Below, in pieces: positions 2,203 through 31,987 of a stretch of 32,000 nt of DNA; within the stretch, counting starts at the first letter, position 1, and each line of letters begins with the position of its first letter. The notes under the pieces were generated by a model. It saw only the letters and a program-made list of their open reading frames with translations, did no database searches and had not been told where the DNA came from. Source of the stretch: Ignicoccus pacificus DSM 13166. Its GTDB lineage: Archaea; Thermoproteota; Thermoprotei_A; Sulfolobales; Ignicoccaceae. The stretch covers positions 450,001 through 482,000 of the forward strand of contig CP006868.1 in assembly GCA_025340205.1 (NCBI GenBank), read 5' to 3'. The position numbers were made by a program, and so were the translations under genes.

Positions 2203-2206
2203 GTAG

Positions 2207-5803: not shown

Positions 5804-5845
5804 TTTTTCAACCTTGGTCTTAGAAGTGTCTATTCCAGCTCTCCC

Positions 5846-6720: not shown

Positions 6721-6969
6721 TTGAGTGTAGTTGTGAGTTTCAGAATAGATAAGGAATTAAAAGAGAAGATGGATAAGTTTAAGTACATAAACTGGAGTGA
6801 GGTAGTTAGAAGAGCAATATACGAAACAATAAAGAAGGAAGAAGAAAAAATGAAGGAGAAGGATAGATCCAAAATCTCCTATGCTGTCCTCAAGATATCA
6901 GCGTTGAGGAGAAGGGCTGAGGGTTGGAATTCCGTGGAGGAGATAAGGAAATGGAGAGAAAGGTTGTAG
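6721..6969 (+). CDS. VapB-type antitoxin (ribbon-helix-helix-like)
   Basis: The protein is 82 aa. VVVSFRIDKELKEKMDKF...WSEVVRRAIYETI fits a strand-helix-helix layout. It overlaps the start of the PIN gene. Confidence 0.65.
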   Translation: MSVVVSFRIDKELKEKMDKFKYINWSEVVRRAIYETIKKEEEKMKEKDRSKISYAVLKISALRRRAEGWNSVEEIRKWRERL

Positions 6970-7376
6970 TCGATGCATCTGTAGTAGTAAAATGGTTCAT
7001 TGAAGAAGAATATAGCGAGCAAGCGTTGAAACTCCTCGACGCCTACAAGGAAGGTCTATTGGATTTAGTAGCTCCCTCCCTCTTACCCTATGAAGTTCTC
7101 AACGCGTTAAAGTATTCAAATGTCTTCGGTGAGGATGAGTTGAAAGAAGTAGCCATTGTGCTCGAAAGCCTCCAGATAACTACCTTTGAACTAAGGAGCG
7201 ATCACGCTCGGAGGAGTTTAGAAATTGCAATGAGGAAGGGAGTGACCGTGTATGATGCCTCCTACGTCGCTCTAGCAGAACTAGAGAACGCTGCCTTCTA
7301 TACGGCTGACGAGAAACTCCTAAGAAAGGTTAAGGATTTAGATTTCGTGAAGCACATAAGGGATTTTGATATCTAG
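6951..7376 (+). CDS. vapC: PIN-domain ribonuclease toxin VapC
   Basis: MERKVVVDASVVVKW carries the first acidic residue, and VYDASYVALAE and FYTADEKL are also present. I chose the start at the ATG at 6951, which is in frame within track ORF 6924-7376. Confidence 0.85.
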   Translation: MERKVVVDASVVVKWFIEEEYSEQALKLLDAYKEGLLDLVAPSLLPYEVLNALKYSNVFGEDELKEVAIVLESLQITTFELRSDHARRSLEIAMRKGVTVYDASYVALAELENAAFYTADEKLLRKVKDLDFVKHIRDFDI

Positions 7377-8680: not shown

Positions 8681-8686
8681 TTGTGC

Positions 8687-10063
8687 TCACCTCTTCAAGT
8701 AGTAAACTATTACGAAAGCCAGAGCGGATAGAAAAATGGTTATCCCAAAGCTCAAGTCTGGATAAGGCAAGGGGGACTTGAAGGCCCTTGAGAGGCCGTA
8801 GGCTAGGGCCACCAGCGCTCCTACCACTGAGCTAGCGATTATGGCATCTCTGTTCCCCTTTCCTATTACCGTCGCCACGACCGGAACTAGGAAGGCTCCT
8901 GCTGTCAAGGTCCAGCCGGTCTTGAAGATCGTGGTAACCGCTCCCGCCAGCTCCTTCGGAAGGGTTAGGGTTAGAACCGCAATTACGGCTGCCGCTACCA
9001 TGCTCAGAAAGCTCAGAACCCTCAATACCTTGGTGTCCTTGATGTCAAACATGTCGTAGCCTATAGCGCTACCAACGGTTAGGGAGATCGAGTCAGCTGT
9101 GCTCATTGCAGCTGCCAGGACAGCGGCGCTGAAGACTGCCGCCCCAACGGTTCCCATGAGCTGCTGGGCTAGGAGGGGGATCGCCTTAATCGGGTTTATG
9201 GGCTTCTGGAGGAGTTGGGCGGCAGCTAAACCGCTCAAGAAGCTGCTGTAGGTTACTATGAATGCGAATGCAGTAGCTATGGCGGTAGACCTCTTCACTA
9301 TCCTGGGGTTCTTAGCTGTATAGAACCTGTTGATGAGCTGGGGAAGTCCCCAGACGGCTATGCTAGTGAGCAAAGCCAGGTCAAAGATCAGCCTTAGGTT
9401 GATCTTCGATGGAGGGACGAAGGGTTTAGAGGCGTCTAAAGCAGTGATGCCTCCCACCTTGGAGGTCGCTAAGATAACGAGCGCCAGCACACCGGTAGCC
9501 ATTATTATTCCTTGAATGGCGTCAGTCCAAACAACGCTGTACATACCTCCTAGAGCTACGTAAATTGCCATAACGAGTGCAATTATGAAAGCAGCCGTAG
9601 CTAAGTCCAGCTTGAAAACAGTTCCAACCATGGCGGCGGCTCCGCTTATGACGGTGGCGGCGTAGAGGGTTAATCCAACGGCCGTCACGAAGCCCAAGAG
9701 CCTCTGAAGGCCCTTGTTGTTGTAGGCCTTGGCAAATAGCTCTGGAACCGTTAGCGCATCGAACTTCTCGCTCAAAGCATTTATCTTTCTTCCAATGAAA
9801 ATAAACGTTACCAACGCTCCCAAGACTACGTTGAACACGGGGATGAGGAGGCTGGAGGAACCCCAGAGGAAGGCCCACATACCTCCAACGACTATGACCA
9901 CGCTGGAGAAGTACGTGGCTCCGAAGGTGAAGGCGAGCAACCATTCGCCTATTTCCCTGTTGGCCACTAGGAATCCTTTAATCGTATCAGCCTTTGCCTT
10001 GAATATGAATCCTATAAACAAAGTTAAAGCTAGGTAAGCTATCAAAACGCCCTCGGCTATCAC
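8687..10063 (-). CDS. Sodium:solute symporter (SSS) family transporter
   Basis: The protein is 458 aa with about 12-13 hydrophobic segments and SSS-like motifs (GGMYSVVWTDAIQG). It lies directly upstream of paaK on the same strand. Confidence 0.85.
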   Translation of the reverse strand: MIAEGVLIAYLALTLFIGFIFKAKADTIKGFLVANREIGEWLLAFTFGATYFSSVVIVVGGMWAFLWGSSSLLIPVFNVVLGALVTFIFIGRKINALSEKFDALTVPELFAKAYNNKGLQRLLGFVTAVGLTLYAATVISGAAAMVGTVFKLDLATAAFIIALVMAIYVALGGMYSVVWTDAIQGIIMATGVLALVILATSKVGGITALDASKPFVPPSKINLRLIFDLALLTSIAVWGLPQLINRFYTAKNPRIVKRSTAIATAFAFIVTYSSFLSGLAAAQLLQKPINPIKAIPLLAQQLMGTVGAAVFSAAVLAAAMSTADSISLTVGSAIGYDMFDIKDTKVLRVLSFLSMVAAAVIAVLTLTLPKELAGAVTTIFKTGWTLTAGAFLVPVVATVIGKGNRDAIIASSVVGALVALAYGLSRAFKSPLPYPDLSFGITIFLSALAFVIVYYLKR

Positions 10064-10167
10064 TCGCCCTCACCCTCCTCCTTCAAGCTGTACCATATCG
10101 CGACAGCAAGGGCACCTACTCCCACTCCGAGGGCCAGCAATACCACTCTTACCCACCTAAGGCCCAC
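10060..10167 (-). CDS. Unannotated 35-aa single-pass membrane peptide, a possible small subunit of the symporter
   Basis: Hand translation gives (GTG)MGLRWVRVVLLALGVGVGALAVAIWYSLKEEGEGE. Its TGA overlaps the GTG start of the symporter as GTGA. An A/T box (caaataaaag on the minus strand) sits about 23 nt upstream of the GTG, which fits a leaderless first gene. Confidence 0.35.
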   Translation of the reverse strand: MGLRWVRVVLLALGVGVGALAVAIWYSLKEEGEGE

Positions 10168-10233
10168 AACATTTAAGGGGCTTTTATTTGTTGACTCTCA
10201 AGATTGTCAAGAATGCCATGGCAGAAAAAGAAC

Positions 10234-11403
10234 TCAGCCCCTCTCCAGAGGGATCTTTTCTACAGTGACGGACTCCAAGTAGTCCCAATCTATGTCAAAC
10301 ATTAAGCCGGGAGAATCCCTCAGCTCCACGAATCCGCACTTTATGTCAAAGGGATCCTTCGCTAAGGACCTCTCATAGAACTGCTGATCTGGTGAGAAGT
10401 CGGAGGGCTCCAGGGGTCCCTTTACCGCTGATGCGACTACCATGTTCAAGCTCCTCCCTATGACTGTTTCGAGCAAACCTCCTATGAAGACTGGGATGTT
10501 GTGGTCCACCGCTATATCGAGCACTTGAAGGCTCGCAGTGAGGCCTCCCAGCCTGGGAGGCTTCACGTTTATTGAGAGCAGCGACCCGAACTCCTCGTTT
10601 AACATAGCTACCTCCAACGCCCTTCTAGGCGTGTCAACGCTCTCGTCGAGCACCACCTCTATTCCCTCTTCCGAGGAGAGCTTGGCTGAACTCACCAAGT
10701 CGCCGGGAGGGTAGGGTTGTTCTATTGCATCAGCGTAAGCGGCTACGTCGGAGAGCTGCTCCCTGTGGGACTCCCTTACCGGGTCATAGGCCCCGTTGGC
10801 ATCTGCCAAGAGTTGGACTCCGGGGAACTCGTGCCTGAGGGCCTTGAGGGGCTCCACGTCCCACCCGGGCTTTATCTTAACCTTGAGTCTCCTGGCCCCC
10901 CAGTTCAACGCCTCCTCAGCACAAGATATCAGTTCATCGAGGTCTTCGGTTATTCCAATGCTCTCCTGCACCGGCAGCTTGTAAGGCCTTCCGCCAACCG
11001 CTTCAACCAAGCTCTTGTTATTTAAGCAAGAGAGGAGCGTGAGGATAGAGTACTCTATCATGGTCTTCGCCATTTGGTTACCTCTATAGGAGTTCAGCTT
11101 TGAAAGGAGTTCCTTCACGTTTTGTGACATAAACAAGTGCTCCTTCATCTTCTTGGTGAACTCAACCACGCTCTCCACGAACTCTCCGGAGTACAGAGGA
11201 TAGGGGTCAACCGGGGCCTCTCCTGCTCCTATGCAATCGCCGCTCCTGGAAATGAGGAACACCCTTACTCCGTAGAACTCACCGAAGCTCGTGCGGAAGG
11301 CTCTCTTTATCGGTATCTTAGCTATTACTAACTCATAGCTCACGTCCTCTGGAATTGACCACGTAAGGTAATCCAAAGCCCATCTCCAAGGAAGGCTATG
11401 CAA
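10234..11403 (-). CDS. Enolase-superfamily enzyme, MR/MLE subgroup (o-succinylbenzoate synthase / N-acylamino-acid racemase-like)
   Basis: Catalytic signatures are present in order: LKVKIKPG (KxK), LLADANGAY (DxN), AIEQP and VLDES. The true start may be the GTG at 11343. Confidence 0.8.
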   Translation of the reverse strand: MHSLPWRWALDYLTWSIPEDVSYELVIAKIPIKRAFRTSFGEFYGVRVFLISRSGDCIGAGEAPVDPYPLYSGEFVESVVEFTKKMKEHLFMSQNVKELLSKLNSYRGNQMAKTMIEYSILTLLSCLNNKSLVEAVGGRPYKLPVQESIGITEDLDELISCAEEALNWGARRLKVKIKPGWDVEPLKALRHEFPGVQLLADANGAYDPVRESHREQLSDVAAYADAIEQPYPPGDLVSSAKLSSEEGIEVVLDESVDTPRRALEVAMLNEEFGSLLSINVKPPRLGGLTASLQVLDIAVDHNIPVFIGGLLETVIGRSLNMVVASAVKGPLEPSDFSPDQQFYERSLAKDPFDIKCGFVELRDSPGLMFDIDWDYLESVTVEKIPLERG

Positions 11404-11446
11404 TAACTCTAAATTGGGTTCCCCTTCACGGATGCGGTGAGTTCAA

Positions 11447-11872
11447 GTGAGGTTGATAATGATAAGGTATGATCCCGAGGAAGGAGCGCAGAGGTTCGTC
11501 ATAGACAACGAGCTGGAGAAAGTAGTTAGAGAGAAGGCGGCTCATGTAATAAAGGAAGAATGGAATCCCGAGAGCGGAGAGTTCAGCGTAATGATGGACT
11601 ACTTCGAGTACGAATATCCTCTCCCCTTGAAGAAGGAGCAGTATGAGCTCTTCAAGAACTTCAACATGAGAAAGGAAGGGAAGGTAGTGGTGGTCAGAGT
11701 TCCCTACTTCGTGATAATGTTCCCCAAGTATCCCTACGAGGGAGCTCCCGTGGTAGTGTACTTGATCACCCCATTCTTCGAGGACAGAGTAGATGAGCTC
11801 ATGGAGTTCGCTAAGCAAGTGTCCTCCGGGATAAACGAGATGCCGGAGGAGTCAGAGGGCCAGCTGGAGTAA
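11447..11872 (+). CDS. Hypothetical protein
   Basis: A long ORF with host-like codon usage and no recognisable motif. The ATG at 11459 is an alternative start. Confidence 0.45.
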   Translation: MRLIMIRYDPEEGAQRFVIDNELEKVVREKAAHVIKEEWNPESGEFSVMMDYFEYEYPLPLKKEQYELFKNFNMRKEGKVVVVRVPYFVIMFPKYPYEGAPVVVYLITPFFEDRVDELMEFAKQVSSGINEMPEESEGQLE

Positions 11873-12721
11873 CCTCTTTCTACCGATAAGGAGGAGCTTT
11901 CCTCCCCTCCACAGGATCCTCTGAAGCTTCCCGTCCCACTCCACTTTGTATTCCTCGAGGACCTTCAGACTCTCCACGTCTACTAACCTTATCCTCAACT
12001 TATCCCCTTCCGGCTCCGCGCTTATCATGTCGCAGTTGGGGCCCAAGGTGACCCTCGAGCCTCTGGGAAGGGTTATCTTAACCGGCCTCTTCAGGTTCCC
12101 CTCCACGTTGTAAAGCCTCACGTCAGTGAGCAAGTCCTCTTCCTTTAGGGTTACCGTGAAGAAGGGATAGCAGCTGCTCACGTCTGTTATTTCCTTATCA
12201 TAGAGTATCTTGTTGATCACCATTGGATCCAAGCCATTGGTGATGAGCCAGCCCTCTATGTCAATTACGTTTAGGGAGTTCCCGGAAGGGGCTAGGAGGA
12301 ACACGTCGCAGATCTCTATCTTCCCGCTCACCCTTCCCACGAACCTCCTCGGGAGGGGCATCACTGTGCCGAGCTCATCGATGAGTAGGCACCCGTCCCC
12401 GCAGGCGATTACTCCTAGCTCGTAGTCTCGAAAGTAAGGATACCTCCTTAGGTCTTGGATCACTATCTCATCGACTAATTTCCCTTGACCACTATACTTT
12501 TCGATGCTATCAAGAACATTCCCCATACCTAAAGTGTTGGAGAAGGGAAGGTAATTAGTGGAAATGTAGAAGTTATCCCTTTCCATGAAGAGTATCTCGC
12601 CTGTAGACTCGATGAGACCTCCGCCTTCCTCAGTAACTACCCCCACCAAGCCGCTAGGGTGGAGGTCCACGTCCTTTATCGCCTTTGAGAATTCCCTTCT
12701 CCAGATTTCCAGCGCTTTCAA
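11852..12721 (-). CDS. Hypothetical protein, probably beta-rich
   Basis: A 289-aa ORF with no motif I recognise. It overlaps the convergent previous ORF by 21 nt. Confidence 0.45.
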   Translation of the reverse strand: MKALEIWRREFSKAIKDVDLHPSGLVGVVTEEGGGLIESTGEILFMERDNFYISTNYLPFSNTLGMGNVLDSIEKYSGQGKLVDEIVIQDLRRYPYFRDYELGVIACGDGCLLIDELGTVMPLPRRFVGRVSGKIEICDVFLLAPSGNSLNVIDIEGWLITNGLDPMVINKILYDKEITDVSSCYPFFTVTLKEEDLLTDVRLYNVEGNLKRPVKITLPRGSRVTLGPNCDMISAEPEGDKLRIRLVDVESLKVLEEYKVEWDGKLQRILWRGGKLLLIGRKRLLQLAL

Positions 12722-12776
12722 CCTAAGGATCGAGGAGAGCGAGGTGATTAAATGTGGAAAGGGGTAGAAAAAAGCG

Positions 12777-13385
12777 TTAGCCGGTTACGGTTACGGTAGT
12801 GGTGACGGTCACAGTCACGGTCTTGGTGACGGTCACGGTGGTGGGAGCGCAAGCTCCGGCGGTGGTGGTAGTGCTGGTGCTGGTCTGCATGACGGCGGGC
12901 TGGATGGTGATTATCTTGCTGGCGTACCAGTCGCCCATGGGGCTTCCGTCACCGTTGGCGGCGATGACAGCGATGTTGAAGGTCACCGGGACGGGCTTCT
13001 TGGGAGCGATCCACTCGAAGGTCCACTCCCTCTTTAGAGAGCCCTCCTTGGTGTGGGTGATTATGGGCTTGCCGGTCATCATGTCAGTGCTTATGAAGGT
13101 GTCCTTGGGGTCGATGACCTTTAGCTTACCAGCGCTGACGCTCACAGCGAATCCGCCGCAGGCAACTCCACCGGTGCAGTCGGGACCCTTGGTTATCTCG
13201 ATGGTTATCTTGTAAGCCTTGCCGGGGACGTACTCCTTAGGTAGGCCGATTACCTTGAACTGGGCAGGGTGCTGAGCGGCGCCCATGTGGCACTGGGTAC
13301 AGGTTAGGGTGGGAGCTCCGTTGCTCATGGCGAAGACGGTAGCGGCGAGGATCACTGCTAAGAGAACGCCCTTAAAGGCCTTCAT
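12777..13385 (-). CDS. Secreted mono-heme c-type cytochrome-like protein with a beta-sandwich domain and a (Thr-Val)n tail
   Basis: I chose the ATG at 13385, which has GAGGTGA upstream. The signal peptide is MKAFKGVLLAVILAATVFAMSNG. There is a single CxxCH motif (CTQCHMG). The C-terminus is QTSTSTTTT...TVTVTKTVTVTVTTTVTVTG, encoded by a 6-nt periodic ACN-GTN repeat at 12780-12850. Confidence 0.6.
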   Translation of the reverse strand: MKAFKGVLLAVILAATVFAMSNGAPTLTCTQCHMGAAQHPAQFKVIGLPKEYVPGKAYKITIEITKGPDCTGGVACGGFAVSVSAGKLKVIDPKDTFISTDMMTGKPIITHTKEGSLKREWTFEWIAPKKPVPVTFNIAVIAANGDGSPMGDWYASKIITIQPAVMQTSTSTTTTAGACAPTTVTVTKTVTVTVTTTVTVTG

Positions 13386-19795: not shown

Positions 19796-21382
19796 ATGAA
19801 AATGAGGAAGGGCACACTACTAACCTACGTCGGCCTCGTCACCTTCTTGCTCGGAACAAGCATAATACTGACGTTCGTAATACCGGCTCAGCTGTACTTC
19901 CTCGCCCCGGGAGCTGAGGACGCTTGGAAGTACGTTAAGGTAAAGGGTATTCTCATTTCCAATCATACGGAAGTTTTTATGAAATATAACATAACTAAGT
20001 ACGAAGGCTCCAAGACTTGCATTCAGTGTCACAAGAAGGAGACCAAGGACTTCGTGCACTCGATCCATTACAAGATGTGGAACTACGTAAATGACATAGT
20101 AGGTAAGCCTAGGGTGAAGGTTGGAAGCAGAGTGCTCTACAACGACTTCTGTGGTGCCATATTCTGGAATATGACCAAGCCAATAAATTTCATTGGTAAA
20201 ACTGTTCTCAAGAATGTTCCGAATGACATGGAAAAATTAAAGGGAAGGGTCGTCTCGACCGGCTGTTCCGCTTGCCACGGCTCCAGCTTAGGCAAGGTTC
20301 CAAATATAGAGCCGAACGGCAAGGACCTCGAAAACGTCGACTGCTTGGTCTGCCATTCTCTCAAATACAGAGGAGGACCCCTTGGAGTAGCGAAGGGCTA
20401 CAGGAAGCTCGTCAAGACTGAGGACGGCTGGAGATACGTCCCTGACATCTCGATAAAGGACGCCGCGTTGATATTGGCTAAGCCCGGGAAGGACTCTTGC
20501 TTGGCCTGCCACGCCTACTCAGGAGGAGGTCCCGGCTTCAAGAGGCCCAACTTAACCCCCGATCTGATGGGGAACGTGTCGGAGCACTTCGACGTCCACA
20601 TGGCTAGGGGTCTTCACTGCGTGGACTGCCATCCTTTCGAGGACCACAAGGTGGCCACCAAGGCCGTGGATACCTTTGCCAGGGAAGGAAAGGCGAAGAG
20701 CTGCGTCGATTGTCATCCTCATAGGCACAGAGCTCCCATCGTCGGATTCTTTATCGAGAGATTCCATAAAAGGGTGAGCTGCCAAGCTTGCCACATCCCC
20801 TACATAGCTCATGGTAAGTACCCAACTGACGTTAAGAGGGATTGGAGGAAAGCGGAGTTCAACTACGAGCTGAAGAGGTGGGAACCTGAGATAGAGCTGA
20901 AGAGAGACGTCGTTCCGACCTACGCTTGGTGGGACGGACGGGATAGGATCGTCTACCCCGACAAGGTTACTGGAAACGAGATAATCTTTGCCAAGCCAGT
21001 CAAAGGAAAGAATGCCAAGATCTATCCCTTTAAGGTCCACATATCATATGTTCCAATCGATAAGGAAAAAGGCGTACCAATACCCATCAAGGTTGGGATA
21101 GTTTTCAGCACGGGAAACGTCACCCTAGCGATAAAGAAAGGAGCTGAGATAGCGGGCTTGAATTACACCGGTAACTTCATCAAGGTAGTTAGATACATGA
21201 GCGTGGATCACGGAGTGGTTCCAGCTAAGGAGGCCCTCAAGTGCACGGACTGCCACAGTCCTTGGACTAGGATGCCTCTGAAAGAGCTGGGCTATGGTCC
21301 TCTTCCAGAAATCGCTTATTACGGCGCTCCTCTGCTCGTCCTAGCTGGCTTGGCGCTAACTCTGTTCTCAATATTGTCCTAA
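19796..21382 (+). CDS. Membrane-anchored octaheme c-type cytochrome
   Basis: Eight CxxCH motifs: CIQCH, CSACH, CLVCH, CLACH, CVDCH, CVDCH, CQACH and CTDCH. There is an N-terminal transmembrane/signal-anchor segment (LLTYVGLVTFLLGTSIILTFVI) and a C-terminal transmembrane segment (APLLVLAGLALTLFSIL). Confidence 0.85.
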   Translation: MKMRKGTLLTYVGLVTFLLGTSIILTFVIPAQLYFLAPGAEDAWKYVKVKGILISNHTEVFMKYNITKYEGSKTCIQCHKKETKDFVHSIHYKMWNYVNDIVGKPRVKVGSRVLYNDFCGAIFWNMTKPINFIGKTVLKNVPNDMEKLKGRVVSTGCSACHGSSLGKVPNIEPNGKDLENVDCLVCHSLKYRGGPLGVAKGYRKLVKTEDGWRYVPDISIKDAALILAKPGKDSCLACHAYSGGGPGFKRPNLTPDLMGNVSEHFDVHMARGLHCVDCHPFEDHKVATKAVDTFAREGKAKSCVDCHPHRHRAPIVGFFIERFHKRVSCQACHIPYIAHGKYPTDVKRDWRKAEFNYELKRWEPEIELKRDVVPTYAWWDGRDRIVYPDKVTGNEIIFAKPVKGKNAKIYPFKVHISYVPIDKEKGVPIPIKVGIVFSTGNVTLAIKKGAEIAGLNYTGNFIKVVRYMSVDHGVVPAKEALKCTDCHSPWTRMPLKELGYGPLPEIAYYGAPLLVLAGLALTLFSILS

Positions 21383-24056: not shown

Positions 24057-24135
24057 GCGGCGGTCGTCTAGCCTGGACTAGGACGCCGGCCTGCCACGCC
24101 GGAGATCCCGGGTTCAAATCCCGGCCGCCGCACCA
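24057..24135 (+). tRNA. tRNA-Gly (anticodon GCC), with CCA encoded
   Basis: I folded the cloverleaf by hand. Acceptor stem is GCGGCGG/CCGCCGC and D stem is GUCU/GGAC. Anticodon stem is CCGGC/GCCGG with loop CUGCCAC. Variable loop is AGAUC and T arm is CCGGG-UUCAAAU-CCCGG. Discriminator is A, followed by CCA. Confidence 0.92.
24075..24135 (+). repeat. attL: a 61-bp direct repeat that is the 3' three-quarters of the functional tRNA-Gly
   Basis: ggactaggacgccggcctgccacgccggagatcccgggttcaaatcccggccgccgcacca is identical to 31927-31987. Confidence 0.9.
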
Positions 24136-24271: not shown

Positions 24272-25555
24272 ATGCAACTGAAGTTAGTAAGCGAACTTAA
24301 TGCTTGGGTCAGAGTCAAGCTAATCCGTTCAGCTCTCGAACACTTTACAGTGGAAGAACTCTCAAAGGCCCTGGGCAAGAGCAAGAGCACTATCTACCGC
24401 TACTCCAAAGGAGATGTAATCCCAAGCGAGGAAGTCGTAGCGAAGGTCTTGGCGTTGCTCTCTGTTGACGTAGCCTTCGCTTCAGTGGGCAAGGAAGTCC
24501 TCAAGGCCTACGGCTTGCTCGACCACGAAGGCAAGCCGAGGCTCGTACCCATGCTAGCTATCCTGAGCGTTGCCTTGGGAGATCCTCTCCTCAGGAAGTT
24601 AGTCCTCGAGTGGGTTTCAAGAGCTTTAGGCAACGAGGTGACTGAGCTCAAGCCCGAACCGGCTTTGCTCATGAAGTGGGAAGACGTCTTCGAGGCCTAC
24701 CTCAAAGAGCGTAAGGGCATAAGTGAGGAGCAAATCGCTTACTACCGCTCGCTCTTTGAAAGGTTCTTCGAGGGCAAGGCGTTAACCGAAGAGTTCGTGG
24801 AAGAAGCCTCGAAGTTCCCAGGGTGGGCGAGGGTCGTCTTTAGGCACTACTTGAACTGGTTGTTACTCGAGCGGAGGGTTGACAGCGAGTTCGTAAGCTG
24901 GGCCTTGAAGAAGATTCCTACGAGGGGCTACAAGGTAAGCGTGAAGGTCCATGAGATAAGCTTTGAGGAGGTCACGAAGACCCTGACTGTGCTTAAACAA
25001 GAGAACGAAGAGATCTATTGGCTCTATCGCCTCCTCCTCGAGAGCGGGCTCAGGCTAGCCCACGCCTTGGAGTTAATCGCTTCATGGAATCCCACCGAGA
25101 AGGTCTTCGTGGAACCCTTGGGCAAGGTTGAGGAGAGGTGCAAGTGCTTTGAAACGCACTGCCGCTGCTGGCTGGGGATCAAGAGGGGCAAGAAGTCCGC
25201 GCTCTGGGCTTTCATGAGCAAGGAGACCTTTGAGGTGCTGAACGAGATAGCTCCGACCAAGCTCTCGAGACACTGCGTGAGCAAGAAGGCGAAGGCTCTG
25301 GAAATCCTTGAGCCCTCGAAGCTTCGCAAGTTCTCCGAGCAATACATGAAGGAGGCGTTCGCCAAGAAGGCACAAGAGCTGGGCGAGCACCCTGAGGTCA
25401 TAATGCAGTTCGTGCAGGGGAGGACCGGCGAGCTGAAGGTCTCTCATTTGTACTACGACAACTTACTGAGGAAGACCGATTTCGTTTACCCGAGCTGGTT
25501 GGAGTTCTTGGGAGATGTGCGCTTTGGTCCTTTGGAGAGAGGACTCGTGGGATAG
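24272..25555 (+). CDS. int: Archaeal-type tyrosine recombinase / integrase
   Basis: It lies 136 nt from the att repeat and has an N-terminal HTH (SKSTIYRYSKGD). The C-terminal catalytic-like series is ESGLRLAHAL (Arg I), SKLRKFSEQY (xxR box), QGRTGE (Arg in place of His/Trp, as in archaeal integrases) and SHLYY (Tyr nucleophile). Confidence 0.75.
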   Translation: MQLKLVSELNAWVRVKLIRSALEHFTVEELSKALGKSKSTIYRYSKGDVIPSEEVVAKVLALLSVDVAFASVGKEVLKAYGLLDHEGKPRLVPMLAILSVALGDPLLRKLVLEWVSRALGNEVTELKPEPALLMKWEDVFEAYLKERKGISEEQIAYYRSLFERFFEGKALTEEFVEEASKFPGWARVVFRHYLNWLLLERRVDSEFVSWALKKIPTRGYKVSVKVHEISFEEVTKTLTVLKQENEEIYWLYRLLLESGLRLAHALELIASWNPTEKVFVEPLGKVEERCKCFETHCRCWLGIKRGKKSALWAFMSKETFEVLNEIAPTKLSRHCVSKKAKALEILEPSKLRKFSEQYMKEAFAKKAQELGEHPEVIMQFVQGRTGELKVSHLYYDNLLRKTDFVYPSWLEFLGDVRFGPLERGLVG

Positions 25556-25566
25556 GTGTTGTCTTG

Positions 25567-25606
25567 GGACCAGGGGCCCCCGCCTCTCGGACCAGGGGCC
25601 CCCGCC
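25567..25606. repeat. Two tandem copies of GGACCAGGGGCCCCCGCC with a 22-nt period, just downstream of int
   Basis: Identical 18-mers lie at 25567-25584 and 25589-25606. Each contains the GGGGCCCC palindrome. Confidence 0.8.
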
Positions 25607-25660: not shown

Positions 25661-26653
25661 TTATTGAAGTATGCTATCACAATTAAGATATATCTTATTG
25701 CTCCCTGGCTTTCTACACAACTTGGGATCACTGGAATACGTAAGTAACTTACAATTGAACTCCAACTTATCAAACCACAGCTTCACCGACTCCTTAATCT
25801 CCTGAGACACCCATCTACCTATTAAGATCCTCCTAAGCGAATACCCAACCAAATCGGCTAACTGTATCAACGGGTTGAGTTGAGATTCGTGTAACTGAAA
25901 GGTAATTATTTTAGAGTAATCAACCCTATTGGATGTCGTAGTTATTTCATCCTCCCCAAAGGACACTAAGAGAGCAGTTATCTTTGCATAGAGACTGGAT
26001 GGAAGGACGTGAGCGTCTTTATCTATCCACAGAATAACTTCTGAATTATCATGTGCTGTAACGAATCCCACAATGCGTTTTAAAAGCTCTGATAAGACAT
26101 AGCCTTTAGCGATTGGTATTATGTTAAATTCAAGTAGCTCCGGTATCTTAACTATGATGTCTAGCTCGTCACTCCTTCTAGAATGTAGGTAATCTTGAAG
26201 AGCATCAATGAGGAGGTATTGCGTTCTGATCTTTAAACATTCCGTGTTTGTTGCTACGAAAGCGTATGTCCATTTAGTGTCAGCGCTTAGTCTGATGTGC
26301 TCCCTGAGTACATCTAACACCTTAGAGAAGACTTGTTCAATAACGTCATGGGGCACATTAAGATCTCTAAGTGCATTGAACAGGAAACGTCCCTTTACCT
26401 CAAAAGGGATGTCGCTTCTCTTCTTGTCTCTCATACGTTTTAGTACATCCTCGACAGATTTGTTCAGCTGTAGTTCTTGAAAAGCTTGAGAGAGAAGTTC
26501 CTTCCAGTACTCTTTGGAAACCAGCTTGTATGTGTCATTGTAGATGTCAAGCGGTACTATAAGCGCGCCCATAGCGAATATTGATTCATGACTGGTTATT
26601 GGTATATTCTCTTCTACATTGCCGGTTTCGTCAATACCCGCGGCGAATAACAT
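25661..26653 (-). CDS. DUF3800-like protein, carried as low-GC cargo within the element
   Basis: The N-terminus MLFAAGIDETGN matches the h-D-E-[ST]-G hallmark at the start of DUF3800 proteins. GGTGGGG sits 6 nt upstream of the ATG. The region is about 38-40% GC by my line counts, against roughly 50-60% in flanking lines. Confidence 0.5.
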   Translation of the reverse strand: MLFAAGIDETGNVEENIPITSHESIFAMGALIVPLDIYNDTYKLVSKEYWKELLSQAFQELQLNKSVEDVLKRMRDKKRSDIPFEVKGRFLFNALRDLNVPHDVIEQVFSKVLDVLREHIRLSADTKWTYAFVATNTECLKIRTQYLLIDALQDYLHSRRSDELDIIVKIPELLEFNIIPIAKGYVLSELLKRIVGFVTAHDNSEVILWIDKDAHVLPSSLYAKITALLVSFGEDEITTTSNRVDYSKIITFQLHESQLNPLIQLADLVGYSLRRILIGRWVSQEIKESVKLWFDKLEFNCKLLTYSSDPKLCRKPGSNKIYLNCDSILQ

Positions 26654-26699: not shown

Positions 26700-27002
26700 T
26701 TAGAAGACTTTGTTACTTAGTGAATCCGACCTCCACGAGGCTCTACGGGTCTTCGCCCTCCTCACCTCCCTCAGCACCTCGTGGAGTTTCTTGGCGACTT
26801 CTTGATCACACTCGAAGAGTAAGGCCATTGCAAGCGTTATTTCCAAGTTGTTGAGTCTGTAGCGAGATCTCAAGATAGCGAGCAAGCCTTCGAACTTCGA
26901 GTGGGCGTTGATGCGGGAGGCGGAAAGGGGAAGGCCCAGGTAGTGGAGGGCTTGTTGCTTGAAGTTCCCGAGACAAGTGTGTACTTGTGCTGGGCTGTCC
27001 AC
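26700..27002 (-). CDS. Hypothetical protein of the element
   Basis: A 100-aa ORF upstream of, and co-oriented with, the DUF3800-like gene. No motif recognised, and several overlapping alternative-frame ORFs make the call uncertain. Confidence 0.35.
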   Translation of the reverse strand: MDSPAQVHTCLGNFKQQALHYLGLPLSASRINAHSKFEGLLAILRSRYRLNNLEITLAMALLFECDQEVAKKLHEVLREVRRAKTRRASWRSDSLSNKVF

Positions 27003-27121
27003 CTTCGCTCACCGTTGCTCCGGAGGGTACCTCGTGTGCACCCGAAAGGAGGGCTCGCGGCGGAGCGCTTGTTCGTGTGGGGAAAGGCCCGGTGGTAGGG
27101 CAAGGCCGAAATCGTTCGGAT

Positions 27122-27136
27122 CCCCCCCCCCCCCCC
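27122..27136. repeat. C15 homopolymer (G15 on the minus strand)
   Basis: I counted 15 consecutive C residues directly, in non-coding DNA of the element. Confidence 0.95.
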
Positions 27137-27185
27137 GTTTAAGGACTTAAGGGGGTTTGTGTTTCACCAATTGATGGTCCCAGCT

Positions 27186-27399
27186 GGCCCAGAGGCCCAG
27201 CGCTTCTGGGGGATACCCGGGGCGAGTGAGAAAAACTGCGAGGGGGCCTCGGGGAAACCACTGGGCCTCTGGGCCCTCGTTTACCATCACATATTTACTT
27301 GGTGATTATGGTTTCACCAATGATCTGAAATCCAAATCACTAAGGTCTCCGCCGTCAAGGGCCCAGAAGGCCCAGCGGGGCCCAGTTGGGAGCTGGGCC
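27186..27399. repeat. GGCCCAG iteron-like array with 5 direct and 3 inverted copies, including a perfect 15-bp inverted repeat
   Basis: GGCCCAG occurs at 27186, 27194, 27360, 27369 and 27379. CTGGGCC occurs at 27261, 27269 and 27393. ggcccagaggcccag (27186-27200) is the exact reverse complement of 27261-27275, with a 60-nt spacer. Confidence 0.85.
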
Positions 27400-27531
27400 C
27401 TGAACGGCAGCGGTGTTACGGTATCGAACTTAAAGGTACATCTCTAATCACTCCCCTCTCGATTTACGGAAGGGAGAGGGAACGACTAGCGAGTGGTCCT
27501 GTTGGGCCCTCAGGAGGCTGAGAAGTTTGTT

Positions 27532-30453
27532 TCAGTTTAGTAATTCAGCGAGTTCTTCCGCCCCAACTTCCTCTTCCTTTAGCTTCAGCGAAATTATGAA
27601 GAGCGAGGTTGGTTCCAGATCGAGTTTGACTTTGTAACCTTTTTTAATGCTTCCGCAAAGCTTCACCTTACTCCTCTGCTCCCTCCTCTTCTTCAGTGCT
27701 CCCAACTCCTCCAACCACCTCGTAACGCTCAGCAACGCCACATTCTCTCCGTATCTCTTCCTTATCCAGTTGTTCACCTCCTCGAAGAAGTTCTTGTTTG
27801 CGAATAAGCAAACGTCGTTACCCTCCACGAACATTACCGCTCCGTTCTCTTCAAACGCAACGCAAGAGGGCGGATAGCCTTGAATTCCAGTAGGCCAATC
27901 GAGGGCCTCCTTGTCGTAAACGTAGAGCTCTAACTCCTTGATCTCCTTGTCCAACACCCTCCTTATGAACGAGTAGAACGCTTGTCTGTAGTCGAAGCTC
28001 TCCCTCCCGACGGCGCTCTCCGTCAGCCCCTCGAAATCTGGCTTGGGGAACGGCTCTAGTCCATACTCCTCATAGAGTTCCCTCCAAGCCTGGTAGCCTA
28101 GCTCAAGAAGTTCCAGTACCTTCCTCCTCCTCGGGAGCCCCTTGAGTTCCCTCTTCCTCTCTTCAAAGAGCTTTGCGAACTTCTCGAGGACCTTCAGGCC
28201 AACAGTCTTTACCGCCTTGATCCTCTCAAGGTCCATCGAGTCCGGGGTGAAACCCCTCGCCTTCTCAACATCTATCCCGTATTCAGCGCTCAAGTAGAGC
28301 CTCACGAACTTATCCTCCGAGTCCAGCCCTATCCTCAACCCCTCGTTGGCTGTCATCACTACGCCTCTCAAGTTAAGGTAGACTCCTTGGACCGTCGGTC
28401 CGCTTTTCTCTGCCATTACCACGTTGGTGGCTGCTCTGTGGAGCTCTTTCAAAGCCCTCTCGTCCATGTTGTGGGCCTCATCAAGAACCAGCAAGAGCTT
28501 GGCTTGGGCTAAAGCCTTCTGAGTCTCGTACTCGGTCCTTGGTAGAGCTGCGTCGGGCTCGACGTTGTTGAGTAAGGCCAAGAACTCCGCTATGGTGCTC
28601 TTACCTCCTCCCCTCTTACCCTCGATCACCAAGTGAGGGAGATAGCTCAGCTCCTTGCGGATTTCGTAAGCTAAGGCCAGAGCGGGGTAGAAGCTCAGAG
28701 CGAAGGCGGGAACCTCGTGGTCCTTGTAGCCCTCAACGAACCTCCTAACGACCTCAAGCCCCAGCTCGATATCTCCTTCGAGCTCAGGCTCCCACTTGTG
28801 AACGAACCTCCACCTCGGCCTGTAACCAGTCTCCCTCGCCAGCAGTAGTTTCCCTTCAACGAGCCAAGGTCCTACTGCGTACCAAGTCTCGACCTCCTCC
28901 TCAGCCATTTCCTCTATCAAACGTTTGAAGGCTTCCTTGTCGTCCAGGAAACTGAGCTGTTTGAGGTTGTTCGCTACGTCCTCTAGTGTCCCAACGAGTT
29001 CCAGCTCCTTGCCTTTGACCTCAAGTCTGACCGAGTAGTAGAGGCCCAAGTTTAGCGGGAGACCCTCGGGGAGTATCTTGATCAGTTTGACCTCCTTGGG
29101 GATAGCGCTTGTTATCAACCTAGCCTCGCCTTGGTTGTTGATGACGTAAACTCCTTCCCTCCCAGTCGTTACACTGCGCACAGCTTTGCCTTGTCTCCTC
29201 CTGAGCCAAGCGACCCCGGAGCCCCTCGCAATTCCCAAGATCCTCTTTATCGTATTGAGGACCTCTCCGACTTGCTTAGCGGCCTCTTCATCATCCAGTC
29301 CGTCCTCCTTCTTTATTTTGAGTAATTCCTCCCTCAGGCACTTGAGCCCGCAAAGGTTTACCCCTTGCCTCTTTTCATAGTGGTAGTCCACTTGGTAGAG
29401 TCTCTCGCTCTTCTCCTCATCGTCCTCAGCCAAGAGTTCGATTACCCTTCTGGCGCTCTCCTTCTCTATCCCGGCTTTTATCATGACTCCGAGCAAGTCC
29501 TTGACTATCTCGTGTCTGTGGCCAGGCTTGTAGAATGGCTTGACAATTTGCACCAACTCGAGAATCCTCGTGTTATCGAGACGTCTTAAAGGCTGGTGGC
29601 GACCCTTGACCGCGATGCCGTTCTTCGACCCCCTAATCGTATCGAGCGGAGGTAAGACCTCCTCGATGACGCTGGTGCTCACCGGTAGCGCTCCGTCCTT
29701 GATCCAGAACGTTGGTTTGGGCCACTCGTACTTCCAGTTGATCGTTCCGATGAGCCTCATGACCCTCGCCGGGTCCTTGATCCTCTCGTCGGCCGGGAGG
29801 CCGAACTCCTTCCCGAGCGCGATGAAGCGCTCCTGGTACTTCCTCCAATCGTTGGGCTTCACCGGATTGAGCAACGTAACGTAGAGGTGGAACCCTCCTC
29901 CACTGAAGGCGAAGTTGAAGTCTATGTCATTCTCCTCGAGGAACGCTAGAAACTCCGCTAGCTTCTCTAGGCTCTCTTCTTCAAACTTACCCTTGTAGTC
30001 TAGGTCGAGCACTAGGACGTTGAACTCTTTGACGTCCTCATTCGAGTGCCTCTTGTTGTAGGAGACCCAAGCTCTGAGCCTCTCATTGAGCTCGAAGTCA
30101 TTATCTTTCAGCTCCTCGAGCTTCACTATCCCAAGTGCCACGTAGGTCTCAGCGTTACCCAAGGCCTCAAGGAAGTCTCTATCCTCCAAGAGCTTTAGCA
30201 GATCACCCTTCCGCTCGAAGGCTAACGTTAGCGAGCCCCTCTCCTCCTTCTGCCAAATGATAACAGGCTTGTCCTCGTTCCCCGTTATCAGCCTCAAGTG
30301 TTCAACGATCTCGCTGGTCCTAACCTTGGGTTCTTCCCTAGTAGCCCGCTCGAGGGCTTCCTTGAGCCCCTTTGTCCAAACGTTAACTTTTTCAGGACCA
30401 TTGGACCCTTCGTTATCGGGTAGCTGCGAGGGGGAGGTGACTACGGCCGTCAT
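27532..30453 (-). CDS. Replication protein: an N-terminal AEP prim-pol domain fused to a C-terminal P-loop (SF3/D5-like) helicase
   Basis: AEP motifs: I is VLVLDLDYK, II is SGGGFHLYV and III is DPARVMRLIGTINWK. Walker A is GKRGGGKST and Walker B is LLVLDEAHN. I chose the ATG at 30453 (MTAVVTSPS...), which overlaps the upstream ORF stop as ATGA, rather than the track start at 30567. Confidence 0.85.
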   Translation of the reverse strand: MTAVVTSPSQLPDNEGSNGPEKVNVWTKGLKEALERATREEPKVRTSEIVEHLRLITGNEDKPVIIWQKEERGSLTLAFERKGDLLKLLEDRDFLEALGNAETYVALGIVKLEELKDNDFELNERLRAWVSYNKRHSNEDVKEFNVLVLDLDYKGKFEEESLEKLAEFLAFLEENDIDFNFAFSGGGFHLYVTLLNPVKPNDWRKYQERFIALGKEFGLPADERIKDPARVMRLIGTINWKYEWPKPTFWIKDGALPVSTSVIEEVLPPLDTIRGSKNGIAVKGRHQPLRRLDNTRILELVQIVKPFYKPGHRHEIVKDLLGVMIKAGIEKESARRVIELLAEDDEEKSERLYQVDYHYEKRQGVNLCGLKCLREELLKIKKEDGLDDEEAAKQVGEVLNTIKRILGIARGSGVAWLRRRQGKAVRSVTTGREGVYVINNQGEARLITSAIPKEVKLIKILPEGLPLNLGLYYSVRLEVKGKELELVGTLEDVANNLKQLSFLDDKEAFKRLIEEMAEEEVETWYAVGPWLVEGKLLLARETGYRPRWRFVHKWEPELEGDIELGLEVVRRFVEGYKDHEVPAFALSFYPALALAYEIRKELSYLPHLVIEGKRGGGKSTIAEFLALLNNVEPDAALPRTEYETQKALAQAKLLLVLDEAHNMDERALKELHRAATNVVMAEKSGPTVQGVYLNLRGVVMTANEGLRIGLDSEDKFVRLYLSAEYGIDVEKARGFTPDSMDLERIKAVKTVGLKVLEKFAKLFEERKRELKGLPRRRKVLELLELGYQAWRELYEEYGLEPFPKPDFEGLTESAVGRESFDYRQAFYSFIRRVLDKEIKELELYVYDKEALDWPTGIQGYPPSCVAFEENGAVMFVEGNDVCLFANKNFFEEVNNWIRKRYGENVALLSVTRWLEELGALKKRREQRSKVKLCGSIKKGYKVKLDLEPTSLFIISLKLKEEEVGAEELAELLN

Positions 30454-30656
30454 TGGTCCACCACCTCCTCTCCCTCCTTCAAGCTTCCGCACATCGCCTC
30501 GTACAACAGGAGAGCCCTCGTCACGACCTCGTTGTCCGCATGGCCGTGGAAGACGTAACCTTCGCACATCTCCCTCGCCATCTCCTCTGCTTCCTTCCTG
30601 AGCTCGGAACCAAGGTCCTTGAGGACTTCCTCGATACGTTGCTCGATCTCCTTCAT
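30450..30656 (-). CDS. Hypothetical small protein (68 aa) of the element operon
   Basis: It has 4-nt overlaps with both neighbouring ORFs, and is acidic and helical. Confidence 0.5.
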   Translation of the reverse strand: MKEIEQRIEEVLKDLGSELRKEAEEMAREMCEGYVFHGHADNEVVTRALLLYEAMCGSLKEGEEVVDQ

Positions 30657-30979
30657 TGCTTACACCTCCTCACAGCTCTCTTTAAGGCCTCCTTGGTGAG
30701 CGGAGTTTGAGGAAGCTCCTCGCCTTTGCAGATCCTTTCTACGAGCCTCTCGATCTCTAGCTCGTTCACCACCACTTCGGGCTCATAGCCCAAGCGCTTC
30801 AACTCCTTGTCGACGAGCCTCTCGAGAGTCTCCCTGAGGCTTTGGTCGTAAACCGTTGCGAGGAAGCAGAGCTTAGCGTGGAGCCCCTCGCTCGCTGGCA
30901 GAGTCTTAGGCTTTCCATTTATTACCTGGTACTTTGCCACAGTGGTGGCCGCGAGGTCGCGGAGCGCGGCTTTTCTCAC
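30653..30979 (-). CDS. Small protein, possibly a ribbon-helix-helix DNA-binding protein
   Basis: KTLPASEGLHAKLCFLATVYDQSLRETLERLVDKEL resembles a strand-helix-helix layout. It overlaps both neighbours by 4 nt. Confidence 0.4.
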   Translation of the reverse strand: MRKAALRDLAATTVAKYQVINGKPKTLPASEGLHAKLCFLATVYDQSLRETLERLVDKELKRLGYEPEVVVNELEIERLVERICKGEELPQTPLTKEALKRAVRRCKQ

Positions 30980-31398
30980 TGCGCCTCACCCCCAACCCTC
31001 TTGATTATCTCTTCTGCCTCCTTCAGCATCTTACACTTACTGAGCTTCTCGAGTAGGGCCTTGAGCTCGTCCTCGTGCTTCCTCATTATCTCCAGCAAGG
31101 CCTTAGTTATCGCCACGTTCGGTAGTCTGTGCTCTTTCCTCAGCTCGATTACCGCCTCTGCGAAGTCTCTCGCCACCTTGAGCTTGGTGAATTCCTTCTC
31201 TTCAAAAAAGCTCGAGAACTTCTCGCAGCTTTCTTGTTTTCCGGTCTTCACAGTTCCACCCGTATCTACCTGGGGTACCAGTGGTTGCTCATGGTGAGTC
31301 GAATCTTGCATCTCATTTCCCCTCACCCAACGTAGGGTACCTAGTCCGTTGCGCACGCTCCCTCCCGTATCCCCCAAGGGTACCAACCGCTCTGCCAT
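30976..31398 (-). CDS. Hypothetical protein, with its C-terminal half paralogous to ORF 31434-31787
   Basis: I preferred the ATG at 31398, which has GGTGAGGGAG 5 nt upstream. The track start (GTG at 31440) and the ATG at 31311 are alternatives. The 5' part lies in a tandem duplication. Confidence 0.5.
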   Translation of the reverse strand: MAERLVPLGDTGGSVRNGLGTLRWVRGNEMQDSTHHEQPLVPQVDTGGTVKTGKQESCEKFSSFFEEKEFTKLKVARDFAEAVIELRKEHRLPNVAITKALLEIMRKHEDELKALLEKLSKCKMLKEAEEIIKRVGGEAQ

Positions 31399-31430
31399 GG
31401 TTACTCCCTCACCCTTACCGAGGGTACCAT
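31240..31430. repeat. Imperfect tandem duplication (units of about 65-85 nt) with GGGTACC cores
   Basis: Unit 31259-31341 (cccgtatctacctggggtacca...cctcacccaacgtagggtacc) aligns with unit 31364-31428 (cccgtatcccccaagggtacca...cctcacccttaccgagggtacc). Each unit carries a GGTGAGGG SD-like box followed by an ATG on the minus strand. Confidence 0.7.
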
Positions 31431-31433
31431 TGC

Positions 31434-31787
31434 TCACCACTTCATCCTCGCCAAGCGACTATCCCACTTGTACACTTCTTTCGCCCTCAGCTTCTTGCAG
31501 AATCTGATGTCCTCGATGGTCTTCCTGAACTCCTCCTCGTGCCTCTTCAGGACGTAGTAAGCGGCCATAGTTACTGTGTGGTTCGTCGTGTTCAGCTCCT
31601 TCCTTAGCCTCAGCACCAGCAAGGCGAACCAGCTTGAAACGGTGAGCCTCGACTTGATTTCGAGCAAGTGGTCCTCCTCTTCGATGTCCTTGCACCTAGG
31701 GTGCTTCTGCCACTCGTACTCCTCCACAAGCATCCCCGCCCAGAGCTGGGGTACCAGTGCGCTAGCGGTGAAACGGAGTAGTCGCAT
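31434..31787 (-). CDS. Hypothetical protein, first gene of the element's leftward operon and paralog of ORF 30976-31398
   Basis: An ungapped hand alignment of RLRKELNTTNHTVTMAAYYVLKRHEEEFRKTIEDIRFCKKLRAKEVYK with ELRKEHRLPNVAITKALLEIMRKHEDELKALLEKLSKCKMLKEAEEIIK gives about one third identity. Confidence 0.5.
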   Translation of the reverse strand: MRLLRFTASALVPQLWAGMLVEEYEWQKHPRCKDIEEEDHLLEIKSRLTVSSWFALLVLRLRKELNTTNHTVTMAAYYVLKRHEEEFRKTIEDIRFCKKLRAKEVYKWDSRLARMKW

Positions 31788-31926: not shown

Positions 31927-31987
31927 GGACTAGGACGCCGGCCTGCCACGCCGGAGATCCCGGGTTCAAATCCCGGCCGCCGCACCA
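31927..31987 (+). repeat. attR: the displaced 3' fragment of tRNA-Gly (61 nt)
   Basis: It is identical to 24075-24135. The upstream sequence (aaaggaactcgaggg) cannot form the acceptor or D arms, so this is not a second tRNA gene. Confidence 0.9.

Follow-up and report, generated by a model that had tools for sequence, protein, structure and literature searches.

A probable self-contained replication initiator, built as a primase-helicase fusion, in a 7.85-kb integrative plasmid-like element of Ignicoccus pacificus DSM 13166

We analysed a 32,000-nucleotide stretch of the Ignicoccus pacificus DSM 13166 genome (contig CP006868.1, positions 450,001 to 482,000; here called the window, with all coordinates counted from its first letter) that holds a large open reading frame (ORF) for a fusion of a primase-polymerase with a P-loop helicase. 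The window contains the whole of a 7.85-kb integrative plasmid-like element to which this gene belongs, and we consider it probable (about 0.8) that the gene product, here called the replicase, is the self-contained replication initiator of this element, which occupies a tRNA-Gly(GCC) gene of a Desulfurococcales-related host. As judged from sequence and predicted structure, the N-terminal part is a genuine archaeo-eukaryotic primase (AEP) whose active site is complete and which is predicted to be active. Most of the remainder of the protein (aa 289-901) is homologous to the replicase of the crenarchaeal plasmid pIT3, and a likely replication origin lies just downstream of the gene. Sequence comparison with a sister element in another genome implies that the helicase and the origin have been swapped together as a cassette while the primase part was kept.

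Results

Gene, start codon and catalytic motifs

The minus-strand frame that ends at the stop codon 27532-27534 is open from a GTG at 30567 (1,011 aa) and from an ATG at 30453 (973 aa). We take the ATG as the start because it overlaps the stop codon of an upstream 68-aa ORF as ATGA and because the nearest homologue, P0002, has an N-terminus that likewise reads MTAVVTSPSQLPD. The initial annotation of this DNA had proposed an ORF of about 970 aa, which agrees with our result, and had not given its strand. Its motif readings are also present in the protein: VLVLDLDYK with the DxD motif at aa 146-154 (29992-30018), SGGGFH at aa 184-189 (29887-29904), the Walker A sequence GKRGGGKST at aa 612-620 (28594-28620) and the Walker B sequence LLVLDEAHN at aa 654-662 (28468-28494). 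The string D...R..RLIGTIN can be found as DPARVMRLIGTIN at aa 227-239 (29737-29775), but it merges AEP motif III (D222) with motif IV (R233 and N239). These motifs are more than chance resemblances because their key residues are invariant or at least 90% conserved across the homologue alignments, which comprise 16 N-terminal homologues (A4), a family alignment of the pIT3-type body (A3) and a helicase-body profile (A6). Disrupted catalytic residues had been named in the annotation as grounds for doubt; in the alignment D150, D152, H189, D222, R233 and N239 are all intact.

The AEP domain

Across the 16 sequences of A4, residues D152, G185, G187, R233 and R313 are invariant, and S184, H189, Y191, D222, R230, G236 and N239 are at least 90% conserved. 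Motif I reads L-D150-L-D152, with Asp or Glu at position 150 in 15 of the 16 homologues and His in one, and motif II reads S184-G-G-G-F-H189. Motif III is D222, at a distance from the RLxGT segment that is the same as in alignments of PriS, and motif IV is R233-L...N239, with the Asn at +6. A conserved Arg followed by a hydrophobic residue, with an Asn six residues downstream, is the motif IV of PrimPol-PV1/RepB'-like proteins, and the arginine has been shown to be essential in PolpTN2 (Kazlauskas et al. 2018, PMC5862659).

An hmmsearch of the A4 profile against the PDB matched the S-2L PrimPol (6zp9; 3.7e-10), archaeal PriS (5e-8 to 2e-7) and the LigD polymerase (4e-3), and the alignments to these solved AEPs take in motifs I to III. 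The AlphaFold2 (AF2) model of aa 1-420 has a predicted local confidence (pLDDT) of 86. In a Foldseek search with this model the top 19 matches were all AEPs, and CRISPR-associated PrimPol and LigD were among its matches, with template-modelling scores (TM-scores) on the target of 0.72 for 6zp9 and, for the RSF1010 RepB' structures 3h20 and 3h25, of 0.68 (3h25); the pRN1 primase came only at rank 40 (E 0.28). Ahead of the catalytic domain, the N-terminal extension forms helices at aa 20-39 and 46-57 with pLDDT above 90 from aa 21, and in A4 it is common only to the closest relatives P0002, P0003, P0018 and P0039.

This domain does not belong to the pRN1/pIT3 Prim-Pol family (PF09250). The replicase has no match to PF09250 at E<=1, and its motif III/IV region reads RLIGTIN and is not of the GGYhhhPPSxH type. 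There is no cysteine in the protein upstream of residue 368, and the AEP domain therefore has no zinc finger. The Pfam model RepB_primase (PF16793) does not match the replicase itself; it does match 4 of the 16 homologues, the best at 1.9e-6, and P0012 scores above the cut-off (26.1 versus 24.3 bits). The closest relatives of the domain are the Rep protein of pXZ1 by sequence and the S-2L PrimPol and RSF1010 RepB' by fold, and we regard pXZ1 Rep as the closest named carrier of this AEP type because the A4 profile matches it at 7.6e-37.

The helix bundle

Behind the AEP domain AF2 places a bundle of helices at aa 294-406, with the motif P-G-H-R313-H...L-G-x-x-x-K326, in which R313 is invariant in 20 sequences (the G-x-R motif). 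A local jackhmmer search detected the bundle in 122 of 152 proteins. PriCT_1 matches are below threshold (E 0.22 in the replicase and 4.7e-4 in one homologue), and in an hhalign comparison with the PriCT_1 region of the Prim-Pol protein P0153 the correct region was aligned at a nonsignificant E of 0.055. We call aa 289-410 PriCT-like on this weak alignment.

The helicase body

A tblastn search of plasmids matched pIT3 of S. solfataricus, and from the family alignment together with a local domain map we divide the shared, pIT3-type body into four segments: the helix bundle (aa 286-420), a beta-rich domain (421-560), the ATPase (561-740) and a tail (741-973). The initial annotation's proposal of a primase-polymerase joined to a P-loop helicase thereby holds, with the AEP recognized by profile and predicted fold and the helicase body by its homology to the pIT3 replicase. 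The ATPase motifs are Walker A G612-KRGGG-K618-ST, Walker B LLVLD658-E659 and motif C VVMTA-N703, followed by D714-K715. In an alignment of 20 sequences G612, G617, K618, N703 and D714 are invariant, with at least 90% conservation of E659 and K715. The two Walker motifs and the Asn of motif C all lie inside about 90 residues, in agreement with the span of about 100 residues that is characteristic of superfamily 3 (SF3), and the core is modelled with pLDDT values of 85 to 98.

The AF2 model of aa 421-973, made from the 20-sequence alignment (pLDDT 82.3; predicted TM-score 0.69), shows in order a beta-rich domain, two linker helices, an alpha/beta ATPase core, a four-helix domain and an alpha/beta end. 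Foldseek against the PDB placed the SCCmec (staphylococcal cassette chromosome mec) helicase Cch (5dgk) first, at E 7e-13 and TM-scores of 0.45-0.47, in an alignment that spans the chain and includes the beta-rich domain (549-604 columns versus a chain of 511-519 residues). Below it came many minichromosome maintenance (MCM) helicases (about 1e-6 to 1e-4), PriRep1 (3.5e-5) and E5 of monkeypox virus (MPXV; 8e-5). Against viral models the top matches were phage DUF927 primase-helicases (E 1e-15 to 1e-11) and a Cch-like "active ring-shaped helicase", while the Pfam DUF927 model itself has no match in the replicase at E<=1, nor among the matches of family members. The body is thus predicted to fold as a hexameric replicative helicase, with the MCM-like Cch closer to it in structure than the D5-type SF3 helicases. 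Cch carries DUF927, resembles Rep2 of Staphylococcus aureus pathogenicity islands (SaPIs) and is classed with MCM (SF6), while Cch2, PriRep5 and ORF904-like proteins are of the D5_N/Primase_Cterm SF3 type (PMC7581432, PMC9371898). The structure prediction by domain that the annotation had suggested as a check accordingly returned an AEP fold at the N terminus and a hexameric replicative helicase fold at the C terminus; of the profile relations that it had named, to AEPs and to SF3/D5-type helicases, that to AEPs was found, but the SF3/D5-type label was not established. Its suggestion that the stretches without recognizable motifs could hold DNA-binding or winged-helix domains was borne out in outline, as a helix bundle, a beta-rich domain and a winged-helix-like tail.

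In sequence searches the helicase-body profile gave only P-loop noise against the PDB, and a phmmer search of the PDB with the 973-aa protein gave nothing. No curated family covers the pIT3-type body, for which Pfam and NCBIfam have no model.

The body occurs behind two kinds of AEP, the pRN1/pIT3 Prim-Pol kind (with motifs GNLvViDFD, TGKGyHiY and GGYvvAPPSiHPsG) and the replicase's own kind (vLvlDlDyk, SGgGfHLY and D..kDpaRvmRlpGT.N). A metagenomic protein, P0039 (1,156 aa), has both in tandem, the replicase's kind at aa 13-289 and Pfam Prim-Pol at aa 285-428, followed by the helix bundle and the ATPase, so that three arrangements are seen ahead of the body. Primase-free proteins of 600-670 aa with beta domain, ATPase and tail are also found (P0017, P0019-P0021, P0023, P0025, P0026, P0029 and P0033), and one ORF of pKEF9, a conjugative plasmid of Sulfolobus, that carries no annotation (L004, 2503-4515) encodes a stand-alone protein of this beta-ATPase-tail composition.

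A likely origin downstream of the gene

Eight of the 12 copies of GGCCCAG in the window fall within 214 bp just downstream of the replicase gene (Poisson P of about 1e-16), on the plus strand at 27186, 27194, 27360, 27369 and 27379 and on the minus strand at 27261, 27269 and 27393. Between the iterons at 27269 and 27360 lies an AT-rich spacer (27280-27340; GC 0.27-0.37 versus 0.51 for the window), and an inverted repeat with 34-nt arms spans 27172-27205 and 27256-27289. The DNA of the region folds far better than shuffled sequences (z = -5.2). An exact 11-nt direct repeat, GTTTCACCAAT, is present at 27161-27171 and 27311-27321, the second copy being inside the AT-rich spacer.

The essential origin of pRN1 is formed by a stem-loop of 100 nt right after orf904 (PMC4234260), and in SaPIs the winged helix of Rep binds 6-12 short iterons that lie directly downstream of rep, in opposite orientation and flanking an AT-rich region (PMC9371898). 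By analogy with both, the GGCCCAG cluster with its AT-rich spacer is likely to be the replication origin.

The sister element and the exchanged cassette

The gene for P0002 is on contig L001 of another metagenome-assembled genome (GCA_054016855.1), in a sister element (476-12914, 12.4 kb) that is likewise inserted in tRNA-Gly(GCC). This element has the same small ORFs and an integrase gene that is 78% identical in DNA, with different cargo. Its cargo comprises a 1,092-aa protein with a weakly matching STAND-NTPase N-terminus and a 501-aa AAA_15 ATPase, which together could form a defence system.

At the DNA level the two elements are 85% identical between 31777 and 29644, the latter position being that of aa 270 of the replicase, and no identity is seen between 29644 and 27137. 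Identity returns, at 88.6%, in a 377-bp block (26761-27136) that stands between two nonhomologous regions. On the upstream side the break lies in the linker (aa 275-287), modelled at low confidence, that joins the AEP domain to the helix bundle. The differing block, 27137-29643, holds the helix bundle, the helicase, the tail and the presumed origin, and the counterpart of the origin region in the sister element is unrelated in sequence, with a motif of its own, GGTAGC, of which 12 of 19 copies lie in 6980-7405 (fold z = -4.0), downstream of that element's own helicase. Because the sister element shares the primase part (78% amino acid identity to P0002 over aa 1-265) and has another helicase body and other downstream repeats, the sequences imply that a helicase-plus-origin cassette has been swapped and the primase part kept. 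A joint change of this kind would be expected if the specificity of the initiator and the origin can only change in step.

The conserved 377-bp block begins with 15 C residues (27122-27136) and overlaps a minus-strand ORF of 100 aa (26700-27002). The C homopolymer marks one recombination boundary of the swapped region. Nothing in Rfam matches the block, which may represent a conserved small DNA-binding gene with its promoter.

Relatives in sequence collections

A word-indexed protein search, made with the single protein and with the 20-sequence alignment, yielded only two close and three marginal relatives. The close ones, P0002 and P0003, among about 15 billion proteins, resemble the replicase over the first 355-360 residues only (64% and 55% identity there), and hhalign of the C-terminal part against them gave no significant match past the PriCT-like segment. 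An exhaustive search of a representative library detected 349 relatives at E<=1e-3, of which 20 reached E<=1e-30. No called gene on record encodes exactly this protein. The alignment with P0004 spans aa 124-921 of the replicase. Relatives are found on plasmid-sized contigs of 3-7 kb.

The integrated element and its host

The ends of the element are perfect 61-nt repeats of the tRNA-Gly 3' end, and because these repeats are perfect and the integrase is intact, the element appears to be recent or still mobile (Table 1). The att site lies outside the integrase gene. In Rfam the element matched only with the tRNA and the att copy, and the integrase had no tblastn match among phage and plasmid records. 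The replicase gene and the four small ORFs upstream of it are probably one operon. None of these small ORFs matches Pfam; judged by eye, several seem to follow a strand-helix-helix pattern, as would fit ribbon-helix-helix regulators of the ORF56/CopG kind known from pRN1 and pIT3. A search of the ORF list and Pfam found no second replication gene in the element. The DUF3800 gene, the only cargo, is exchanged for other genes in the sister element. The stop codon of the integrase and the DUF3800 gene are separated by a stretch in which the GC-rich 18-nt unit GGACCAGGGGCCCCCGCC occurs twice, as a perfect tandem pair 22 nt apart (25567-25606).

Table 1. Features of the integrated element and domains of the replicase, in window coordinates
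Feature	Position	Strand	Basis or remark
tRNA-Gly(GCC)	24057-24135	+	ARAGORN
attL, 3' 61 nt of tRNA-Gly(GCC)	24075..24135	+	Perfect 61-nt direct repeat
Tyrosine integrase, intact, with N-terminal helix-turn-helix (HTH)	24272..25555	+	Pfam PF16795 (Phage_integr_3, archaeal) 2.4e-20; HTH_3 2.6e-7
DUF3800 gene, 330 aa, sole cargo	25661-26653	-	Pfam
Putative origin	27172..27400		GGCCCAG iterons and inverted repeat, just downstream of the replicase gene
Replicase gene	27532..30453	-	973 aa and stop codon; AEP, helix bundle, helicase and winged-helix-like tail
C-terminal helical domain (aa 742-834) and alpha/beta winged-helix-like end (aa 844-973)	27535..28233	-	AF2 secondary structure
P-loop ATPase core, aa 561-740	28234..28773	-	Walker A, Walker B, motif C, D714-K715
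Beta-rich N-terminal domain of helicase module, aa 421-540	28834..29193	-	AF2 strands 426-539, pLDDT about 90
PriCT-1-like helix bundle, aa 289-410	29224..29589	-	Six helices; first segment of the pIT3-type body
AEP catalytic domain, aa 58-270	29644..30282	-	Conservation, PDB profile matches, Foldseek
N-terminal extension, aa 1-57	30283..30453	-	Disordered head and two helices (AF2)
Four short ORFs of 68, 108, 154 and 117 aa that overlap one another, ahead of the replicase gene	30450..31787	-	ORF list; same order in the sister element, 85% DNA identity
attR, identical second 61-nt tRNA-Gly 3' end	31927..31987	+	100% identity repeat; partial tRNA match in Rfam

Host genes to the left of the element encode a multihaem cytochrome c and ThiC, the latter 90% identical to that of two hydrothermal metagenome-assembled genomes labelled Thermoproteota and Desulfurococcales. 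An assignment to the Thermococcales, as an element of the pTN2 or pT26-2 type, was rejected on these host genes. The multihaem cytochrome c (528 aa, 19796-21382) has MtrC/MtrF-like domains, which are unusual for archaea, and hints at metal respiration.

Discussion

Taken as the initiator of the element, the replicase would act after the integrase has excised the element from the chromosome. Its C-terminal domain would then recognize the inverted GGCCCAG iterons around the AT-rich spacer, and the protein would assemble itself as a hexameric ring, melt the spacer and translocate 3' to 5' at the expense of ATP. The tethered AEP domain, aided by the helix bundle, would make a primer, probably with deoxynucleoside triphosphates, and may extend it. 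From the comparison with the sister element, the helix bundle, helicase, tail and adjacent origin would move as one specificity cassette, with the AEP as an exchangeable module that is independent of the origin. We give roughly even credence to the wider proposal that the pIT3-type body represents an uncurated MCM/Cch-like family of self-loading helicases that is widespread on small archaeal plasmids and is swapped together with its iteron origin behind interchangeable AEPs.

Several observations weigh against this reading of the protein and of the element. Searches of Pfam, NCBIfam and PHROGs with the 973-aa protein gave subthreshold matches only, with no curated Pfam or NCBIfam model above threshold. 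The TM-score of the multidomain match to Cch is moderate (0.45), and the winged-helix-like reading of the tail, whose end contains a disordered or low-confidence insertion at aa 921-949, draws on this whole-chain match as well as on the AF2 secondary structure. The class of the helicase is left open between SF3 and MCM-like because the sequence, through a DUF5906 match in the ATPase core that stays below the cut-off (24 bits versus 27.6; E 3.4e-5), hints at SF3 while the predicted fold is nearest to the MCM-like Cch. The assignment of the origin is drawn from analogy. Scans of GTDB genomes, IMG/VR and JGI metagenomes with the protein or the N-terminal alignment gave no close relative, their sole yield being one distant match in IMG/VR, and the element is known here in its integrated form only.

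If the gene were a true orthologue of pRN1 ORF904, it would combine a Prim-Pol (PF09250) with a D5/P4-type SF3 helicase, and the shared order of functions and similar length would be in keeping with this, as would the subthreshold DUF5906 signal in the ATPase core, given that ORF904 also has DUF5906, and the description in a review of pIT3 Rep, the homologue of the replicase body, as "highly related" to ORF904 (PMC4538821). Nevertheless, PF09250, pRN1_helical, D5_N and Pox_D5 are all unmatched by the replicase, BLASTP against ORF904 gave one nonsignificant match of 12 residues (E 0.74), the helicase-body profile has no ORF904 match at E<=10, and the poor rank of the pRN1 primase in the fold search and the lack of a zinc stem in the AEP domain point the same way. 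We regard orthology as largely refuted and extremely unlikely. The architecture of the pRN1 ORF904 type proposed in the initial annotation stands as a functional layout, but the families differ, and no ORF904 domain was found above threshold.

A role in repair, damage tolerance or defence, as reported for the ICETh2 Ppol of Thermus and for CRISPR-associated PrimPols, is very unlikely as well. The structural neighbours of the AEP domain do include a CRISPR-associated PrimPol and LigD, the Thermus mobile-element PrimPol was reported to be dispensable for replication of its element (PMC7693054), and the sister element has defence-like cargo in its STAND-like NTPase and AAA_15 ATPase. Against such a role, the replicase is encoded by the only replication-type gene that this minimal element has, its primase is joined to a helicase body that is of the initiator type and recurs in the replicase of pIT3, a plasmid of 5 kb, the iterons are directly downstream of the replicase gene, and relatives of the protein are on contigs of plasmid size. 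A reading of the gene as a non-functional remnant, left in an element that is domesticated and decaying, would agree with the two close relatives among so many proteins and with a free circular form not being known, but the frame of 973 codons is unbroken, the catalytic and ATPase residues are all intact, the two att copies agree at all 61 nt and the integrase is of full length, so that we judge this explanation very unlikely.

A replicase that initiates replication of its own element does not overturn current understanding, and its significance is modest; the points of interest are a clean element, a helicase family without annotation and the swap of a module within the gene, together with the origin. 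The sister pair is a concrete case of modular exchange in which the same primase is joined to a different helicase and origin, and if the wider proposal on the pIT3-type body is correct, the window and the sister element would constitute a natural domain-swap experiment in which origin specificity resides wholly outside the primase domain. To our knowledge, few mobile elements have been described from the Desulfurococcales, and the present case adds a complete integrative plasmid that appears intact: its ends are clear, and it has an integrase, a replicase and a candidate origin. As reagents, the thermostable primase-polymerase and helicase might be of use.

Comparison with known systems

RepA of pIT3 (Saccharolobus solfataricus, NC_005907.1, 915 aa) is collinear with the replicase, its aa 257-876 aligning with aa 289-901 at 32% identity over 639 columns (BLASTP E 1e-86; A6 profile 1e-190), a match that covers the helix bundle, the beta domain, the ATPase and the tail up to aa 901. 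Both are single-protein replicases of small crenarchaeal elements, and no zinc motif is present in the AEP domain of pIT3 Rep (PMC4538821) or of the replicase. In contrast, the N-terminus of RepA is a Prim-Pol (PF09250) and that of the replicase is an AEP of another type, the two N-terminal domains do not align, and pIT3 is a free 5-kb plasmid without an integrase whereas the element studied here carries one. The converse is found in Rep of pXZ1 (Sulfolobus islandicus, NC_010365.1, 1,077 aa), which has an AEP and a helix bundle of the same type as the replicase, as indicated by the A4 profile (7.6e-37 at aa 39-212 and 5.9e-12 at aa 219-308), but a C-terminal body that is unrelated to the pIT3-type helicase; pXZ1, like the present element, carries an integrase.

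The solved structures closest to the AEP domain are those of RSF1010 RepB' and the cyanophage S-2L PrimPol (TM 0.68-0.72 on target), which share with it the motif IV Arg and the Asn at +6. In RepB', too, a PriCT-1 helix bundle comes after the catalytic domain (PMC5862659), but motif II of RepB' has Gln where the replicase has His189 (PMC5862659), a feature of RepB' proper that is absent here, and the matched chains of RepB' and the S-2L PrimPol have no helicase of the kind found in the replicase. For the helicase, the whole-chain plan of Cch, with an N-terminal domain, an AAA+ core and a C-terminal winged helix, is matched by the predicted fold of aa 421-973, although Cch and SaPI Rep are bacterial and Cch has only 12-13% sequence identity to the replicase and a TM-score of only 0.45. 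In the SaPI/SCCmec Rep helicases the C-terminal winged helix binds iterons and translocation is 3' to 5' (PMC9371898).

With ORF904 of pRN1 (Sulfolobus islandicus) the replicase shares the layout of AEP primase-polymerase, helix bundle, hexameric helicase and DNA-binding tail. ORF904 is composed of Prim-Pol, pRN1_helical, D5_N, DUF5906 and Pox_D5, whereas the replicase reaches the threshold of none of these, and no sequence relation between the two proteins is detectable beyond the P-loop; the likeness is one of architecture only, with every domain from a different family. The pRN1 layout is built here from nonorthologous parts, an AEP of the pXZ1 Rep kind and a helicase body shared with pIT3, and the replicase thereby joins the known class of AEP-PriCT-helicase-winged-helix replicases of archaeal plasmids.

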